Below, piece by piece: positions 43,458 through 51,498 of a stretch of 51,498 nucleotides of DNA; the first letter of the stretch is position 1; each line of letters opens with the position of its first letter. The stretch spans positions 1-51,498 of the forward strand of contig JBGTHM010000018.1 of assembly GCA_041746255.1 (NCBI GenBank), in the 5' to 3' direction. The notes under the pieces are model-generated. The model was given only the letters and a program-made list of their open reading frames with translations, searched no databases and was not told the DNA's origin. This DNA is from Fibrobacteria bacterium. GTDB lineage: Bacteria > Fibrobacterota > Fibrobacteria > UBA11236. The translations under genes and the position numbers were made by a program.

Positions 43458-44093
43458 GTGAATGCCCAGGACTCGAACCAAGCTTTTTCCCAGATTCTCA
43501 TCGGGCTGCTCAAAGGCATGCTTTACTCCGATGCCGACGCCGGTCGCTGGCAAGCCCTGCTGCAATTGCAGGCCCGCGTGCGCGACCATGTAGCCGTGCT
43601 CGGACTGGAACTGGTTTTGGATGAAGCCGAAGGTTACGCCTATCTCAAGCAACGCCCCGCCATCGAGGGGGAACCCGAACTTCCGCGTTTGGTGGTACGC
43701 CGACAACTCGGCTATTCCGTAAGCCTATTGCTGGCTCTCCTGCGGAAAAAACTGGCCGAATTCGATGCCCTTGGGGAGGACAGTAAGCTGGTTCTGTCAC
43801 GCGCCGAAATTGCGGAAATGGTCAAGGTATTCCTTCCCGACACCGGTAATGAAGCCCGATTGATGGATAAACTCGACAGCCACATTTCGAAAACCGCGGA
43901 GCTGGGTTTTCTCCGCCGCCTGAAAGGCGACGACAGCCGCTTCGAAGTGCGCCGCATTCTGAAAGCCTTCGTGGATGCCCAATGGCTGCAGGAATTCGGA
44001 AGCCGCCTGGAAGCTTATCGCTCCCATGCACAGGAAGCCTTATCCGATAACACCTCCGATACTTCGCCTATACGGCCTGGGGAGGCGTCTTGA
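43458..44093 (+). CDS. jetB: Wadjet JetB (DUF4194)
   Basis: [20 protein letters not shown]...[26 protein letters not shown]. Confidence 0.92.
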
Positions 44094-47000
44094 TCGGTAA
44101 TTCGGAACCGCTCCAAACCCAATTGGAATGGGTGGAAAAAGACGAATTGGCCGGCTTCAGGCTTCAGCGTCTCGAGCTTTTCAATTGGGGTACATTTAAC
44201 CAGAATATCTGGTCTTTTGATCCCGCGGGCAAAAACGCGCTGCTCACCGGCGATATCGGATCCGGAAAATCGACCGTGGTGGATGCGGTGGCCACCTTGC
44301 TCGTGCCGCCGCAAAAGGCGGCTTATAACAAAGCGGCGGGAGCCGAGTCCAGGGAACGTACGCTGCGATCGTATGTCCTGGGTTATTATAAATCCGAACG
44401 ACAGGAAAGTTCGGTTTCAGCCAAGCCGGTAGCGCTCCGGGACACCGGGACCTATTCCGTACTCTTGGGCCGCTTCTTCAATGCCGGCTTCAACCTTTCG
44501 GTTACCTTGGCCCAGGTATTCTGGCACAAGGACGCCGAGGGACAGCCCGCGCGATTCTATGTGGTGTGCGACGGACCTTTGGCCATCGCCACGCATTTCA
44601 CGCAATTCGGAACCGACATCCAGGCCTTGCGCAAACGCCTTCGGGCTTTGCCCAACGTGGAACTGTTCGAAACCTTTCCGCCCTATGCCGCGACCTTCCG
44701 CCGCCGCTTCGGCATCGCCAATGAGCAGGCGCTCGATCTTTTCCACCAGACCATTTCCATGAAATCGGTTGGCAATCTCACGGAATTCGTGCGGCAGCAC
44801 ATGCTTGAATCATTCGAGGCAGAGCCGCGCATCACCGCCTTGATCGGGCACTTCGACGACCTCAACCGGGCGCACGAAGCCGTGCTGACGGCCAAGATGC
44901 AGGTGGAAAGACTGACACCCCTGGTAGAAGATTGCCGCCGGCACCGCGAACTCGCCGCGGAATCCGATTCGTTGCGCAATTGCCGCAACGCCCTGGACGC
45001 CTGGTTCGCGGGAATCAAAGGCGCACTGTTGTCCAAGCGCCGGGAAAACCTGGAATCGGAAGCGTCCAAGCTGGAAGCCCGTCTCGAAACTGCCAAGGAA
45101 CGATTGGCTGGCCATAAAGCGAAACGCGATGAAATCAAACTGTCCATCGCGGAAAACGGCGGCGATCGGCTCGAACGGCTACGCTCCGAAATCAGCCGGA
45201 CGGCAAAGGATAAAGAGGAACGTCACCGTAAAATGGATCAATACCGGTCGCTGGCCGAACTGGCCGGGTTACCGGAACCCGACTCGACGGATGCCTTCCT
45301 CGCCAACCGCCTCGCTCTGGAAACCGGCCTCGAGGAGTCCGAATCGCGTGAAGCCGATTTGCAGAACGCCCGCACCGAATCCGAAGTGCGGTTTCGGGGC
45401 CTGCGCGATCAACATGACTCGGTTGAACATGAGCTGACCTCGCTGCGCTTGCGCCGCACGAACATACCCACGCATATGCTGGATTTACGGGCGGAGCTGT
45501 GCCGCAGCCTGCAATTGGAGGAAGGACTGTTACCCTTTGCCGGGGAACTCATCCAGGTCCGGGCCGAAGAGAGCGATTGGGAAGGTGTTACGGAAAGGCT
45601 ATTGCACAACTTCGGACTATCTTTGCTGGTTTCCGACGACCTTTACCTCCGCGTGGCCGGGTGGGTGGATAAGACCCACCTGGGCAAGCGGCTGGTCTAT
45701 TACCGAGTGCGCGAAAATCGCACGGCATCCCCGGGCCGTGCCACAGCGCAATCGCTGGTAAGCAAACTCACCGTGAAGTCGGACTCCCACTTCTACAAAT
45801 GGCTGGTCAACGAACTCGAGCGCCGTTTTGATTATGCCTGTTGCGTATCGATCGAAGATTTCCGGCGCGCGGAAAAAGCCGTTACCCCCTCGGGTCAAAT
45901 AAAAGGCACCGGAGAGCGGCACGAAAAGGACGACCGCCATGGCATCGGCGACCGCTCGCGCTATGTATTGGGCTGGGCGAATGAAGCCAAAATCGCCGCT
46001 CTGGAAAAACAGAGAACCGATTTGCAAAAGCGCCTGCAAATTCAGGGTGAGGAGCTGGCGACAACGATTTCCGACCAAAGCACCCTGAAGGAAAAGCAAA
46101 ACCGTTTGCAGCAACTTTCGGTATTCGAAAATTTCCGTGAATTGGATTGGAAGCCCCTCGCGCTGGAATTACAGAGACTCGAGGAGGAAAAACGCGCCCT
46201 GGAAGCCGCCTCCGATAAATTGCGCGCTCTCGAAAACCAATTACGGGACGTCGAAACGGCACAAAAAGAAACCGAGAATGATATCGAGGACTTGCAACGC
46301 AACCGGGAACGCACCCGTTTGAAACAAGAGCAGGCCGTGGAACAGGCCGCCGAATGCGCCGCGCTCGTCTCGAAAGCATCCGAGGAGGTGAAGTCCTATT
46401 ATCCCCGCCTGGAAGCCCTGCGCGCAGAGGAATTGGGGGAAGCGGCATTGACGGTGGAGTCGTGCGATAATCGCGAGAAGAACATGCGCGAGAAGCTGCA
46501 AGCGCGCATCGACAAGCAAGCTCAGCGCATCAAGCGGATCGAGGAGAATATCATCAAGGCCATGGCCGATTACCGCAAGGACTATCCCCTGGAAACCCGG
46601 GAAGCGGATGCCTCGTTGGACGCCGCGGATGAATACGCCGCCATGCTCGACCGTCTGCTTACCGACGACTTGCCGCGCTTCGAGAAGCGGTTCAAGGAGT
46701 TACTCAACGAGAACACCATACGCGAAGTAGCCAACTTCCAATCGCAACTTGGCCGGGAGCGGCAAACCATCAAGGAACGCATCGAACTCATCAACCGGTC
46801 CCTCCGCGAAATCGACTACAACCCCAACCGCTATATCATTCTCGAAGTGACCGCGAGCATGGACGCCGACATCCGGGATTTCCAGCACGACTTGCGCGCC
46901 TGCACGGAAGGCGCTCTCACGGGATCCGAAGACGAAGCCTACTCGGAAGGCAAGTACCTGCAAGTCAAGCGCATTATCGAACGCTTTCGCGGGCGTGAGG

Positions 47001-47473
47001 GCACGGCGGAATTGGATCGCCGCTGGACAAAAAAAGTCACCGACGTGCGTAACTGGTTCTCTTTCTCCGCCTCGGAGCGCTGGCGGGAAGACGACAGCGA
47101 ACACGAACACTACACCGATTCGGGCGGCAAATCCGGCGGACAGAAGGAAAAGCTGGCCTATACCGTTCTGGCCGCAAGCCTGGCCTATCAATTCGGCCTG
47201 GAATGGGGAGCCACGCGTTCCCGCACCTTCCGCTTCGTGGTCATAGACGAGGCCTTCGGGCGCGGCTCCGACGAATCCACCCGCTACGGGCTGGAGCTTT
47301 TCAACCGCCTGAATCTGCAATTGCTGATCGTAACCCCTTTGCAGAAAATACAGGTGATCGAACCCTATGTTTCCGGCGTAGGCTTTGTGTACAACGAGGC
47401 GGGCCGCTCCTCCATGCTGCGCAATCTCACTATCGAGGAATACCGCGCCGAGCGCGACAAGCGCGACGCCTGA
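44090..47473 (+). CDS. jetC: Wadjet JetC SMC-like ATPase
   Basis: NWGTF, Walker [10 protein letters not shown], long coiled coils, KSGGQ signature, Walker B VVIDEAF. Confidence 0.95.
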
Positions 47474-47480
47474 AATCTCC

Positions 47481-48668
47481 ATGCCCTGGACCACCCCAGC
47501 CGATATACGCGCCCGCCTGCGAAAACATTGGGACAGGGGCACGCTCCTTTCGGCGCGACTTACGGGTGAAAACCCGTTTCCCCTAAAAATCTCCCTCGCC
47601 AAACCTTCGAGTCAAGACTTCTCCGGAAATTTCGAGGGTGTCCGCAATTGGATACGCGAGTTGGAAGAAGGATCCTTGGCCAAGCTGGGGTACGGCTATT
47701 CCATCGAATGGACGGAAATCAGCCATAGGCAACTGGGACGTAACCGTATCCCGGCCTCCGCGAGCATACCAAGCGAAAACGATGCCTTGCGTTTGCTTGG
47801 AAAACGATCCGAAACGGAACGCTTTGCACAATTGTGCCAGAAAACGCTGACCGTTTTTCCACAATTGCAGGAATGGCTGACGGCCAAACCCCATTCGGCG
47901 CTAAAACATGCCGATTGCTGGGATTCCATTCTAGCCGTACTGGATTGGTTCAAGCACAATCCCCGCTCGGGCCTTTATTTGCGGCAGGTGGACATCCCCG
48001 GCGTGGATACCAAGTTCATCGAAAGGCGCAAAGGGCTTTTTTCCGAATTGCTGGGCCTAATACTAACCGAACCCGCCGGTGAGAAAACCCCATTAGGCGC
48101 GCGTCATTTCGAGGCCCGCTTTGGCTTGCGCACAAAACCCATATTGATGCGATTCCGTTTCCTGGATACATCCCTGTTTCAGGCCAACCTTTCCGACATC
48201 TCCTCCCCACTGAATGAATTCGGCTCCTTAAATCCCCCCTGCCGGAATGTTTTCATTACCGAAAACGAAATAAACGGGTTGGCGTTTCCCTCGCTGCCCG
48301 ACAGCATGGTACTCTTCGGTCTCGGCTACGGAGTAGATTGCCTGGCGCATATACCCTGGTTACGGGAAAAACGGCTTTTTTATTGGGGCGACATCGACAC
48401 CCACGGCTTCTCCATCCTCAATCGCCTGCGCTCCATTTACCCCGAGACGCGTTCCTTTCTCATGGACAAGGAAACATTTTTGACCCATAAATCCTTATGG
48501 GTGGAGGAAGCAAGCCCCTTCAAGGGAACGCTGCCCCGGCTCCTTCCCGAAGAGTCCGCCGTCTTTTCGGATTTGTCCGGCAACGTATCCGGTTATCATG
48601 TCCGCCTGGAGCAGGAGCGCATTTCCTTCGGTTGGGTGGTAGAGCATGTGCATCGGTTATTGTCATAG
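47481..48668 (+). CDS. jetD: Wadjet JetD TOPRIM nuclease (DUF3322 + DUF2220)
   Basis: YLRQVDIPGVDTKFIE, ITENE, YWGDIDTHGF, RLEQERI. Confidence 0.93.
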   Translation: MPWTTPADIRARLRKHWDRGTLLSARLTGENPFPLKISLAKPSSQDFSGNFEGVRNWIRELEEGSLAKLGYGYSIEWTEISHRQLGRNRIPASASIPSENDALRLLGKRSETERFAQLCQKTLTVFPQLQEWLTAKPHSALKHADCWDSILAVLDWFKHNPRSGLYLRQVDIPGVDTKFIERRKGLFSELLGLILTEPAGEKTPLGARHFEARFGLRTKPILMRFRFLDTSLFQANLSDISSPLNEFGSLNPPCRNVFITENEINGLAFPSLPDSMVLFGLGYGVDCLAHIPWLREKRLFYWGDIDTHGFSILNRLRSIYPETRSFLMDKETFLTHKSLWVEEASPFKGTLPRLLPEESAVFSDLSGNVSGYHVRLEQERISFGWVVEHVHRLLS

Positions 48669-48721
48669 GCTTGGCTCTGCCGGGACAGTTTTTGTCCTAC
48701 CACCTAGTTTAGGTTTGGGTT

Positions 48722-49942
48722 ATGACACCGCAATTCTGGACCCAAAAGTGGATGGATCGTTTCCACCACCAATTTATTCGCCATACTAATAGCAGCCCTT
48801 ACTCCGACCCCGGGTTCCGGCCTGACTACGGGTATCTGGAAAAATTCCTGATGGCGCATCCCAAATCGCCGACCCAAATCGGCGAAACAGAGCTGCGCGA
48901 ATTTATCCAGTCGAAGGATAATCCCGGCTCGATTTCCATCAAGATCAAATCGCAATTACCCACCCTGTCGCTATTTTACCGGCAAACCATCCCCTCTACC
49001 CCGCATTTGGAATTACTGGAAGCGGTAACCGGAGAATTACGGGTCCAATCCAGGGGGGTACAGAGCGAAAATTGGCTGAAAAAGGCCGAACTGGAAATGA
49101 AGGCGCGAAACCTAAGCCGGGAAACGTTGAAAAATTACCTGCATGCCATCCGCCGTTATCTGTCGGCACAACCGGGAAACCCGGCCGTAGCCTCCGCCAG
49201 TATGGTGAAAAAGCACTCATTGCATTTACTGAATGAGGAGAAACTTTCGGCTTCCACGGTAAACCTGCATTTGGCGGCCCTGGGTTTTTTCTTCACCCAT
49301 GTGGCACGCAATCCGATGCTGTGGCAAGGGGTGAAGCGATTGAAGGAACCCAAAAAGCTACCGAAGGTGTATTCGTCAGGGGAAGTAAAGCGGTTACTGG
49401 AGGCCGTGGAGAATACCAAACATCGACTATTGTTGTCGCTGGCTTACGGATGGGGCTTACGTGTGCAGGAAATCGTGCAATTAAAGGTTACGGATATCGA
49501 TTGGGAAAGGAAGCTGATACGGATTCGGGGAAAAGGCTCGAAGGATAGGCAGGTAATGCTGGGAGAGAATGTGGGCATGCTTTTGCAGGAATATGCGGCG
49601 AGGCGCCCAGGCCTGCGGTTTGTTTTTGAAGGGCAATTGGAAGGCAGGCCCTATTCGACGCGCTCTGCGGAGAAGATTTTTCATCAGGCGCGAGCCAAGG
49701 CAGGGCTACGGCATTTGGGTGGTTTACACGTTCTGAGGCATAGTTTCGCGACTCATCTGCTGGAACAGGGGGTCGATTTGCGCTATATTCAGTCGCTTTT
49801 GGGGCATTCCAGTAGCAAAACCACAGAAATTTATACGCATGTTTCTGCTACGCATATCGCCAAAATCGAAAATCCGCTGGACAGGCTGGTAAAGGAACAT
49901 AGTCGGAACCAAGGGTTGGATAATGTTACCTTGGGTACGTAG
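48722..49942 (+). CDS. tyrosine recombinase, IntI-related but apparently lacking the I2 insert; two N-terminal SAM-like domains
   Basis: Intact catalytic set: GLRVQE (R), KGSKDR (K), HVLRH, LGH, IYTH (Y). The KDR-to-FVF segment is short. Confidence 0.88.
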   Translation: MTPQFWTQKWMDRFHHQFIRHTNSSPYSDPGFRPDYGYLEKFLMAHPKSPTQIGETELREFIQSKDNPGSISIKIKSQLPTLSLFYRQTIPSTPHLELLEAVTGELRVQSRGVQSENWLKKAELEMKARNLSRETLKNYLHAIRRYLSAQPGNPAVASASMVKKHSLHLLNEEKLSASTVNLHLAALGFFFTHVARNPMLWQGVKRLKEPKKLPKVYSSGEVKRLLEAVENTKHRLLLSLAYGWGLRVQEIVQLKVTDIDWERKLIRIRGKGSKDRQVMLGENVGMLLQEYAARRPGLRFVFEGQLEGRPYSTRSAEKIFHQARAKAGLRHLGGLHVLRHSFATHLLEQGVDLRYIQSLLGHSSSKTTEIYTHVSATHIAKIENPLDRLVKEHSRNQGLDNVTLGT

Positions 49943-49988
49943 TCGGAACTGGGTGTATGTGGAGGGGACCGACTAGAGGGAGTTGTCC
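49900..49988 (+). other. putative attI-like recombination site
   Basis: Direct repeat TAGTCGGAAC at 49900 and 49940, inverted CCGACTA at 49969-49975, then core GTTGTCC at 49982. Confidence 0.55.
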
Positions 49989-50558
49989 TCAATTGGCGGG
50001 GGCGGTCCCACCACAGTGAGATCGTCCATGGTTTCCAGGACGAAAGCTCCCTGTAGGTATTCTCTTCTTTTAGTCCTTCGGGAATACTTGTATTCCAAGA
50101 AGGACGTAGAAGAGAATACCAGGGATTCTTCCTACGGAAGAATCCCGTTAGGACCGCCTCGGCTGCGGGAAAATGCCGCAAGAAGTTGCGGGGACAGAAT
50201 TTGTCCACCCTCCTAGGCTAACTTCTTGCGGAACACCTTGATCCGGAGTCTCTATGCATTACCCTGCAGCCCCCGCCAACTCAGCCAGCCGCTACGCGTC
50301 TTCTGCCCTACGGGGCGGACAACAGCGACCTATGGCGGCTCGGCAAAGCCAAAGGACAAGCCTTTCGCCTCGCCCAAATGCCTCTGCTCCTCGTAGCAGG
50401 CGTTCAACCGGACCCGGAATCAGGGTCCCCTTGTCCCCAATTCCGGGTCTCGGTTTCCCGCATCCTACGCAGTCCTTGATTTGGATGCTATCATTATCAC
50501 ATCAAGGATTGCGTAGGACTGCTACGGTCGCGCCGGCACTTCGCCATAGGCGCGACCG
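49983..50558 (+). mobile_element. putative gene cassette 1 (ORF-less, structured) with its attC-like site
   Basis: Starts G|TTGTCC, contains the complementary GGACAAC (50317-50323), and ends at the next G|TT (50558). Confidence 0.55.
49993..50279. ncRNA. candidate structured ncRNA/ssDNA cargo of cassette 1
   Basis: Nested perfect stems: 10 bp 49993/50270, 8 bp 50001/50151, 13 bp 50056/50108, 11 bp 50122/50136, 12 bp 50176/50220. Confidence 0.45.
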
Positions 50559-50564
50559 TTGTGT
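50317..50564 (+). repeat. long branched attC-like site 1
   Basis: AAC-AGCGA-CCTATGGCG ... CGCCATAGG-CGCGACC-GTT closing stem; internal hairpins including an ACAAG loop. Confidence 0.6.
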
Positions 50565-50638
50565 GACATTTTGCAGGTAAGTATCGCCTTAGTGACTAGC
50601 GTCACCGAGGCATAAAAATGCTACTTTATGGGCGAATA

Positions 50639-51142
50639 ATGCAAATTCTAATTACAAATAAATTCAGTCACATAATTGCTATTGCAACTTTGGCTATCGC
50701 ATCCTGCACTGGTAAAAGCAGCAACCGGAATGCTGATTCACTCTCAAAAAATGAATTTTTAGATCTTTACCGGTTATCTAATCTGAGCAATGTTATTTGC
50801 AACAGAATAGAAGAAGGGACAGTAAAAAGAATTGCTATTAAGCCCAGGGTTTATGAAATGTTGAACCAATCCGAAAAAGAAATAATCGAAGAATGCTTAA
50901 TTTTAAAACGAGTAATTGTCGATACCAGTAGGACTCGGGTTTCAAGAAATTCGTACATATATGATTCGACAATTTACTTCGACTTTAGGATAATTTCTCA
51001 CGAAGGTTCCCAGTATCTTTCTGCCTGGTACCCATTGGGTTTTGGAATGGATTGTGGAACAGGAACACTTTTTGAAAAATATGAATTAATTAAAACCGAT
51101 TCGAAGTTAGTGGTTGGCGAAAAGATAGAGGATAATTTTTGA
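50639..51142 (+). CDS. AT-rich hypothetical lipoprotein (cargo of cassette 2)
   Basis: Lipobox IAS-C after a hydrophobic signal; visibly much more AT-rich than flanking genes; alternative ATG at 50618. Confidence 0.75.
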   Translation: MQILITNKFSHIIAIATLAIASCTGKSSNRNADSLSKNEFLDLYRLSNLSNVICNRIEEGTVKRIAIKPRVYEMLNQSEKEIIEECLILKRVIVDTSRTRVSRNSYIYDSTIYFDFRIISHEGSQYLSAWYPLGFGMDCGTGTLFEKYELIKTDSKLVVGEKIEDNF

Positions 51143-51181
51143 AAAATCGCCCATAAATCAACTAATGCACCTGCAAAACGC

Positions 51182-51358
51182 TCACACAACAACGCACAGG
51201 GTGCTCCGTGCGGGACAAGCCCGCACTCTGGGGCTACGCCCAAACGGTTTTTCGAGTTGGGCTGGCAGGTCACAAGGCATCCTCATGGCGCCCGCTAAGG
51301 CGGGCTTGTTCCGGTGCTCTTGTTCACTGCATGCTGCGGGCGAAGCCTACGGGGGGAC
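51182..51358 (+). repeat. attC-like site 2 (left part; interrupted by IS)
   Basis: TCACACAAC is complementary to the cassette start GTTGTGTGA; GTGCGGG-ACAAG-CCCGCAC hairpin followed by CGCCCAAA, as in site 1. Confidence 0.55.
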
Positions 51359-51498
51359 GATAACGTACGTTTTGTTTCGCAAAAATGAAGAGGCTCCTCA
51401 GTCTGATTAGATTTGAAGTTACCACACTTTAACCCTAGTTCAGAAAGAGGAGCACATGGAAAATATAATCCAAATCAACCAGGACCAAATCCGGAATC
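51359..51498 (+). mobile_element. left end of an IS256-family insertion sequence (truncated by window end)
   Basis: GATAACGTACGTTTTGTTTCGCAAAA resembles IS256-type ends as recalled; leader hairpin CTCCTC..GAGGAG; GAGGAG SD; ORF start MENIIQINQDQIRN at 51456. Confidence 0.65.

Follow-up and report, generated by a model that had tools for sequence, protein, structure and literature searches.

A tyrosine recombinase lacking the I2 segment at the head of an integron-type cassette array with giant attC sites

Introduction

Integron integrases are defined, and integrons in genomes detected, by means of the I2 segment. The locus described here raises the question whether a tyrosine recombinase without this IntI-specific segment can be the enzyme of a gene-cassette array. 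It lies at the 3' end of a 51,498-nucleotide (nt) stretch of DNA from a Fibrobacteria bacterium (GenBank assembly GCA_041746255.1), here called the window, which is the entire contig JBGTHM010000018.1 (C18) and ends at position 51498; the assembly holds 4.59 Mb in 130 contigs. G000 denotes the window's own genome, G001 a genome of the same genus, and C a contig number. A first-pass annotation had proposed that the recombinase, a co-oriented cassette array downstream of it and giant branched att sites together form a gene-capture platform, located next to a Wadjet system. The parts of the locus that matter for this proposal are the following.

48722..49942, plus strand, I2-less tyrosine recombinase of 406 amino acids (aa) (open reading frame (ORF) list, Pfam PF13495 and PF00589)
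49900..49984, plus strand, attI-like head: direct repeats TAGTCGGAAC at 49900 and 49940, inverted CCGACTA at 49969-49975, GAGGGA, and G|TT at 49982-49984
49983..50316, plus strand, body of cassette 1, ORF-less and highly structured
50317..50564, plus strand, attC A: 248 nt, GC-rich, R'' box GGACAAC, L boxes CCTATGGCG and CGCCATAGG (pair I23), R' box GTTGTGT, ending in GTTGTGTGA
50559..51181, plus strand, body of cassette 2, with an ORF at 50618-51142 for a lipoprotein-like protein of 174 aa
51182..51358, plus strand, 5' part of attC B, interrupted by an element at 51358/51359

Cassettes and attC sites

At its 3' end the window holds the head of a gene-cassette array of integron type. The motif GTTGTCC stands at 49982, 40 bp past the stop codon of the recombinase gene, and from there the DNA divides into two units (49982-50564 and 50558-51358) that lie downstream of the recombinase and in its orientation, as the first-pass annotation had described. 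GTTGTCC is complementary to GGACAAC at 50317-50323, and GTTGTGTGA at 50558-50566 pairs with TCACACAAC at 51182-51190 (inverted-repeat pair I24); all motifs behind the claimed complementarity of cassette starts and AAC boxes were thus located in both units. Over 19 rows from eight loci, the cassette start pairs with its own R'' box over at least 7 contiguous nt in 15, and a sixteenth row reaches 9 nt by eye; about 3 nt of this pairing is fixed by GTT/AAC itself. Judged from the sequences, the complementarity is far beyond chance.

The boundaries of the units are marked by breaks of identity between copies and between orthologues, which fall at GTT. At the start of contig C103 lies a 99%-identical copy of the 3' 122 nt of attC A, and identity is lost right after ...GACCGTT; the cassette that follows carries a different gene, ends in GAGCATAAC, which is the complement of its own start GTTATGCTC, and is succeeded by another fold-back. 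The second break is found in G001 and is described with the head site below. In the public sequencing run X1 a contig spans exactly 49982-50560, from GTT to GTT, at a depth of 46.7 against 15.3 and 11.9 for its neighbours, as would be seen if cassette 1 were present several times in the sample, contig depth being no strict copy number. Among the contigs of four runs no joint skipping a cassette was seen, a result that is uninformative either way because contigs drop rare forms. With bounds at G|TT, pairing of start and R'' box, and loss of identity at GTT, the array follows the integron logic ascribed to it, and the comparisons indicate that its units are real integron-type cassettes.

The two fold-backs, whose common sub-motifs the first-pass annotation had noted, belong to one family. 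attC A matches the family hidden Markov model (HMM), built from eight full-length sites, with an nhmmer E value of 2e-29, and this model gives 15 nhmmer matches in the genome, on 10 contigs, so that further copies flanking unrelated ORFs, which the first-pass annotation had called for, do exist. Identity between attC B and its copies on C37 and C23 is 83-90%, and the C23 copy runs on to ...CTGAC|GTTATAC at a full length of about 259 nt. Partial attC fragments occur on C31 and C37.

In an alignment of 20 full-length sites from nine genomes (A2, 345 columns) the ends are those of classical attC sites: a 7-nt box ending in AAC, about 4 nt and L'' on one side, and CCACTTC, L', NNAAC and then GTT on the other. 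The R''-L''...L'-R' repeats and AAC/GTT are present in 20 of 20 sites, and the L-box helix has compensatory changes in five of its six pairs. The core is GTTRNNN and not GTTRRRY, a deviation already reported in the first-pass annotation. Site length is 256-290 nt, of which the inner ~215-250 nt are conserved in sequence and multi-branched. The sites are over twice as large as usual; for the variable part of an attC site, Cury 2016 puts the length at 20-100 nt.

The consensus fold predicted by RNAalifold has 60 pairs in nine helices, and 52 of the pairs are changed on both sides. Cells are paired at 90.8%, against 67.3% in shuffles and 34-49% when the partners are slid, and none of 500 shuffles reaches any of five measures. 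Covariation in the alignment accordingly speaks for the branched attC fold, and the description of the att sites as giant and branched holds both for attC A and for its family. Which strand is folded is not told by the pair counts, because G-U and A-C exceptions are about equally frequent by eye.

The cassettes themselves differ in content. As RNA, cassette 1 has a minimum free energy of -162.6 kcal/mol (z -9.5), and none of 100 shuffles folds as well. A search of Rfam with 48000-51498 at E <= 1 returned a chance microRNA match only, and none for cassette 1. An ORF-less homologue of cassette 1 is found in another genus, in G013:C85 (L118 6664-6970), where the hairpins are kept, the stem sequences differ and GGTTYCCAGGACGAAA...CTGTAGGTATTC is common to both; cassette 1 may carry a non-coding RNA or act as a signal in DNA form. 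For the 174-aa protein of cassette 2 no Pfam or PADLOC family was found, only a weak lipoprotein-signal match. The pairing between start and end of cassette 2 (50558-50635 and 51147-51190) exceeds the 9-nt boxes, with TTTTGCAGGT/ACCTGCAAAA and TTTATGGGCGA/TCGCCCATAAA. GTTRNRTGACATTTTG or GTTRYRYGCAAT is the start of many cassettes in the family, and the outer stem of these sites thus extends past the R box. In run X2, a soil metagenome of another study, pieces 90-93% similar to attC A, the cassette 2 ORF and attC B (window 50327-51356) show that related cassettes exist outside the source sample.

The head site

The array begins at a defined site. The head carries the motif GACTAGAGGGAGTT, which is unique in the genome, and it can be compared directly with that of G001, in which jetD and the recombinase gene are syntenic with the window at 79% nucleotide identity. 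The head is kept up to GTTG at 49982-49985, where homology stops, and the first cassette of G001 is a different one, whose start GTTGGGTGA pairs with TCACCCAAC ahead of its own fold-back. A difference in cassette content downstream of an orthologous recombinase, as the first-pass annotation had asked for, is thereby at hand. The head behaves as an attI site should, would presumably be used as such by the enzyme, and on this comparison is a live junction.

Because the tail of the recombinase gene overlaps the head site, a constraint at the DNA level may act on that tail. The tail is conserved in G001 despite two TAG codons; these codons could reflect recent decay, a sequencing error or the DNA-level constraint of the head.

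Heads at other loci, described below, consist of a hairpin and AG|TTRY at 35-150 bp past the recombinase stop. The hairpin stands directly before (T/G)AG|TTRY, and TTCGCACTAG or CTAG motifs are common to several heads. The head of G013 folds as a mini attC of 50 nt. Two other views of the head were tried and rejected: that the head of G000 is the 3' half of a giant attC, as there is no R'' box upstream, and that the recombinase gene is itself a cassette (G013), as there is no GTTGCC-type start upstream of the gene.

The recombinase

In the protein encoded at 48722-49942, a helical extension of about residues 1-115 at the N-terminus precedes a SAM_4 core-binding domain, which is followed by the catalytic domain. 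It is a member of the tyrosine recombinase superfamily (PF00589, E 3e-41) with the catalytic R-K-H-R-H-Y set, and R247, K271/K274, H336, R339, H362 and Y371 are invariant across 32 family sequences (alignment A1). The integron integrase model TIGR02249 matches at 208 bits, below its cut-off of 265, and in two stretches (profile 2-179 and 242-315) that skip positions 180-241. By sequence, the best match of solved structure is the integrase of Vibrio cholerae, VchIntIA (2a3v), whose residues 182-247 stand opposite just the 24 residues 293-316 of the window recombinase, and 52 gap positions fall in the I2 region when the protein is aligned with the genome's own IntI. These three comparisons bear out the claim that the recombinase lacks I2; the adjacent integrase with the IntI-specific segment by which a classical integron is known is not present here.

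The enzyme does not fall among the XerA-type proteins either, since it scores 205.7 bits with NF040815, under the cut-off of 220. In its AlphaFold2 (AF2) model (pLDDT 85) the closest fold is that of archaeal XerA 4a8e (Z 23.2, rmsd 9.0, 258 residues aligned), followed by 5hxy (Z 18.8) and VchIntIA (Z 17.2). Other Xer-like genes of the genome are on contigs C79 and C102. Comparison with the G001 orthologue gives a dN/dS (ratio of non-synonymous to synonymous change) of 0.11 overall, with 0.07 in the core, 0.16 in the N-terminal domain and 0.22 in the tail, and such values point to purifying selection on the recombinase.

The N-terminal ~115 residues have no match in Pfam, and a fold search with this domain within the whole model gave no clear match (top Z 6.7 over residues 35-113). 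Used alone, the N-terminal 118 aa matched only two of the 296 genomes of the phylum, G000 and G001, and the extended form is not traceable in this way. The lineage's canonical IntIs, with open frames of 430-500 aa, also carry an N-terminal extension (L001 of G000:C56, 1384-2763, minus strand; L101; L108-L111). A profile comparison made over the whole aligned length places this extension, unbroken, opposite the N-terminal domain of the I2-less family. In a quick tree built from 39 sequences, the 17 canonical IntIs fall in one clade (SH-aLRT 96) adjoining the 21 I2-less sequences (SH-aLRT 89). The closest named homologues of the window recombinase come from metagenome-assembled genomes (MAGs) of Fibrobacterota type.

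Array heads in related genomes

Twenty-five loci of I2-less homologues from G000 and its relatives were compared for attC sites downstream. A co-oriented giant attC is present at nine of them (G000:C18, G001:C60, G013:C85 with seven sites, G003:C4, G030:C367, G004:C53, G025:C198, G034:C36 and G015:C45). At seven of the nine, the first R'' box is complementary, over 7 nt or more, to the first GTT that lies within 130 bp of the recombinase stop. Upstream genes are common to G000 and G001 only, jetD-recombinase synteny included, which implies that the conserved unit is the recombinase with its array.

Of the remaining loci, 14 have no attC match, ten of them with less than 2.5 kb of downstream sequence. 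At G003:C9 (L138 670-2996), where the I2-less recombinase contains one TAA, the giant attC sites are upstream and on the opposite strand, in the classical divergent layout. The last one, G000:C23 (76353-79639), has a short I2-less recombinase (42% identical) and, between it and the array, an IS91-family transposase directly upstream of the cassette start AAC|GTTATGC, after which follow a GNAT-like ORF and a full giant attC.

G003, which is 99% complete, and G015 have such arrays, yet no match covering the I2 region and no canonical IntI. In G003 the BLAST matches to giant attC, all but one weak one, lie on the two contigs that bear its I2-less recombinases.

The same layout in other phyla

Relatives at about 40% identity were surveyed in genome and metagenome contigs; among the matches listed, mostly short forms outside the N-terminally extended family, there are at least 159 loci, 111 of which have at least 1.5 kb of downstream sequence. 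Chained cassettes were scored by a 9-mer match of start and R'' box, together with L boxes that form a stem of 6 bp or more and a GTT behind it. Among the matches listed, 13 of the 111 loci have at least one cassette and six have at least two in a chain, against five and none, respectively, on the opposite strand of the same flanks. An upstream, opposite-strand control gave at least two chained cassettes at two of 61, although this control is not clean, as it can catch real divergent arrays.

The arrays in other phyla have textbook attC sites of ~100-140 nt after a head of hairpin and GTT, and their hosts are a Spirochaetota MAG, a Flavobacteriaceae isolate, Winogradskyella, Aquiflexum and metagenome contigs. 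TIGR02249 again matches the recombinases in two pieces and under its cut-off. NF040815 is passed by four of seven array-headed relatives (226-245 bits, cut-off 220). In the five genomes searched from Bacteroidota and Spirochaetota, for which completeness is not given, none has a TIGR02249 match over cut-off. An array downstream of the recombinase thus recurs in other genera and other phyla, in line with the layout first proposed from the window alone.

Immediately 5' of L' the giant attC sites conserve CCACTTC (A2 columns 295-300), and in I2-less arrays of other phyla (L019, L022, L039, L040, L191, L224) the attC sites have the similar CAACT(T/G/A) at the equivalent place. This element may be a sequence signature of the sites of I2-less arrays.

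Which enzyme serves the array

We consider that the I2-less recombinase is probably, with ample room for doubt, the array's own platform enzyme, acting alone or with a canonical IntI encoded elsewhere. Several findings weigh against this. A canonical IntI occurs in 26 of 61 genomes searched, and G000 is one of them: the gene on C56 (27174-28109, minus strand) scores 371 bits with TIGR02249 over profile positions 3-315 in one piece, and the absence of a classical integrase that the first-pass annotation implied is contradicted by it. The canonical IntIs of G029:C262 and G030:C7 head divergent arrays with the same giant attC family, and a classical enzyme could therefore do all the chemistry at the window array. 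According to Cury 2016 and IntegronFinder 2.0, I2 is needed for attC recombination. In the G001 orthologue (L113 6305-7540), two TAG codons stand in frame no more than 20 codons past the catalytic Tyr, yet the head cassette of G001 differs. Recombinases with and without arrays are interspersed in the 39-sequence tree, and no array follows in 3-12 kb of downstream sequence at G027:C38, G033:C127, G034:C7 and G034:C21, the last a full-length relative at 40% identity with no array within 7 kb. Finally, no recombination product was observed directly.

One alternative is that the array is serviced only by a canonical IntI elsewhere, with the I2-less recombinase a neighbour or an accessory that, for example, binds or resolves head DNA; the GTT junction would then be a secondary or attI-like site used by IntI. 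The intact gene on C56, the G029 and G030 arrays and the different head cassette beside a G001 recombinase with stop codons all fit such a division of labour, as does the presence of a canonical IntI in 13 of the 19 related genomes in which giant attC sites were seen. Giant attC sites stand beside a classical attC of ~150 nt in G029, and the G029 and G030 arrays imply that they are part of the ordinary integron world of this lineage; the idea that they are private to I2-less heads had to be rejected. Service by IntI alone nevertheless leaves unexplained why a co-oriented I2-less gene stands 35-150 bp before the first cassette at nine loci with unrelated upstream genes, why five genomes from other phyla, none with an IntI match over cut-off, show the same layout, and why G003 and G015 have arrays without a canonical IntI. 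We regard it as a serious candidate, though an unlikely one.

A second alternative is that the array is an immobile fossil like an attC cluster that has no integron integrase (CALIN), next to a recombinase with an unrelated Xer-like role or one in element integration. This would fit the interruption of attC B, the stop codons that several recombinase homologues of relatives contain, and the partial attC fragments on C31 and C37. Such an array would not be expected to show raised depth for its first cassette with attC and a 99%-identical occurrence of them in one other context or more, to differ at the head between two species of one genus, to follow a recombinase with a dN/dS of 0.11, or to keep its attC fold by compensatory changes in 52 of 60 pairs. 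It is an improbable explanation.

That the recombinase belongs to a mobile element which targets array heads or attC sites, and is present by insertion and not as a platform, is suggested by the C23 unit and is the least probable of all, as tblastn with the C23 transposase matched only C23 among the 25 loci (neither C18 nor any of the other 23), at the nine array-headed loci the DNA upstream of the recombinase is free of attC sequence, and in G013 no repeat links the head to the flank upstream.

For a platform enzyme without I2, then, what stood of the first-pass proposal is the array logic, the co-oriented I2-less head, the giant att sites and the recurring layout; that this enzyme runs the array is a step that we infer.

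Comparison with known systems

Sedentary chromosomal integrons, such as that of Vibrio cholerae with VchIntIA, resemble the window array in their G|TT bounds, R''/L''/L'/R' boxes, AAC/GTT, pairing of start and R'' box, attC sites that are homogeneous within a lineage, and polymorphism at the head. They differ in that the window recombinase has no I2 and is co-oriented with the array, and in that its attC family measures 256-290 nt with a core of GTTRNNN instead of GTTRRRY.

The integrases of the Treponema group are IntI proteins with the extra domain, unlike the window enzyme. This is implied by their place among the 215 IntI of Cury 2016. These inverted-orientation integrons share with the window an integrase co-oriented with the cassettes and a head past its 3' end (Cury 2016). 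Cury 2016 also lists 50 non-IntI recombinases co-localised with attC sites, 29 of them in genomes with IntI elsewhere, and judges them not to be IntI. By eye the window locus is also like a CALIN, having two attC sites next to a non-IntI recombinase, and IntegronFinder would most likely file it as one, if the sites were detected, because this recombinase fails the IntI test. The defined head beside a conserved recombinase family implies that the window array is, unlike a CALIN, not an orphan fragment.

With XerA, XerC and XerD the window recombinase shares fold, domain order and the lack of I2; it differs in having an extra N-terminal domain and a link to cassette arrays, and in not standing in a dif-like context. 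In the pdif modules of Acinetobacter plasmids, which depend on XerC/D, discrete gene modules are likewise moved by Xer-type recombinases without I2. They use short double-stranded dif-like sites in inverted pairs, not folded AAC...GTT hairpins of one direction. IS91-family elements with an upstream tyrosine recombinase are related through the C23 copy, which belongs to the same I2-less clade, and differ from the window locus, which is without an HUH transposase. The literature searched gave no account of I2-less recombinases running arrays, nor of attC sites this large; Supplementary Figures S1 and S5 of Cury 2016, outside that search, may show relatives.

Proposed mechanism

If the I2-less recombinase is the platform enzyme, the following course can be considered. 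The cassettes are bounded at G|TT, each with a giant attC closed by its R and L boxes. The attC presumably recombines as folded single-stranded DNA, like a classical attC. The enzyme would bind the repeats and the hairpin of the head and carry out strand exchange at G|TT between head and folded attC. In the absence of I2, which mediates recognition of flipped-out bases, CCACTTC-L' and NAAC|GTT may supply sequence contacts in its place. The first cassettes could be expressed by transcription reading through from the recombinase gene. A canonical IntI may, in this lineage, act beside the enzyme or take its place.

Genomic context

The first-pass annotation also placed the platform next to a Wadjet island. 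Three genes upstream of the recombinase confirm this (region 43458..48668, plus strand); they are upstream context only.

43458..44093, plus strand, jetB (PADLOC JetB, E 9e-88)
44090..47473, plus strand, jetC (PADLOC JetC, E 0)
47385..48668, plus strand, jetD (PADLOC JetD, E 6e-144)
51359..51498, plus strand, left end of a multi-copy element with an ORF from 51457; the contig ends here

The jet genes stand in a row, and Pfam matches DUF3322 and JetD_C on them. The 140 nt of the element are found at 97-100% identity at the ends of C47, C56, C57 and C106 and partly on C37 (C37:1-232) and C45; on C56 it lies ~550 bp upstream of the start of the canonical intI. Its depth in run X1 is ~95, about 7x that of its flanks, and the assembly breaks at the element. 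In two 90%-identical attC copies, on C18 and C37, it is inserted at the same position of a conserved GGGGG hairpin. The public run that best matches the window DNA is labelled as a hot-spring metagenome, and no RNA run was among the matching runs listed.

Implications

A broader reading is that Xer/IntI-like recombinases without I2 constitute a widespread second class of integron integrase, able to recombine folded attC sites with no I2 helix. In this lineage, on that reading, the class shares one cassette pool with canonical IntI, the pool is marked by multi-branched attC sites of 270 nt whose conserved inner fold has a function of its own, and the N-terminal domain is homologous in both enzyme types. 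We put this forward tentatively, as a possibility somewhat short of even. If it is right, the lineage could show integron integrases arising from, or reverting to, Xer-like enzymes. Complete integrons are rare in Bacteroidetes according to IntegronFinder 2.0. Should I2-less enzymes run arrays, integrons would be far more widespread than counted, for example in Bacteroidota, many "orphan" arrays would have an overlooked enzyme, and the accepted structural account of attC recognition would be incomplete. The attC sites, over twice the usual size and with a fold conserved by covariation, raise the role of the extra 200 nt. With classical and I2-less heads in one genome and a shared attC family, both enzymes can be compared on the same sites.

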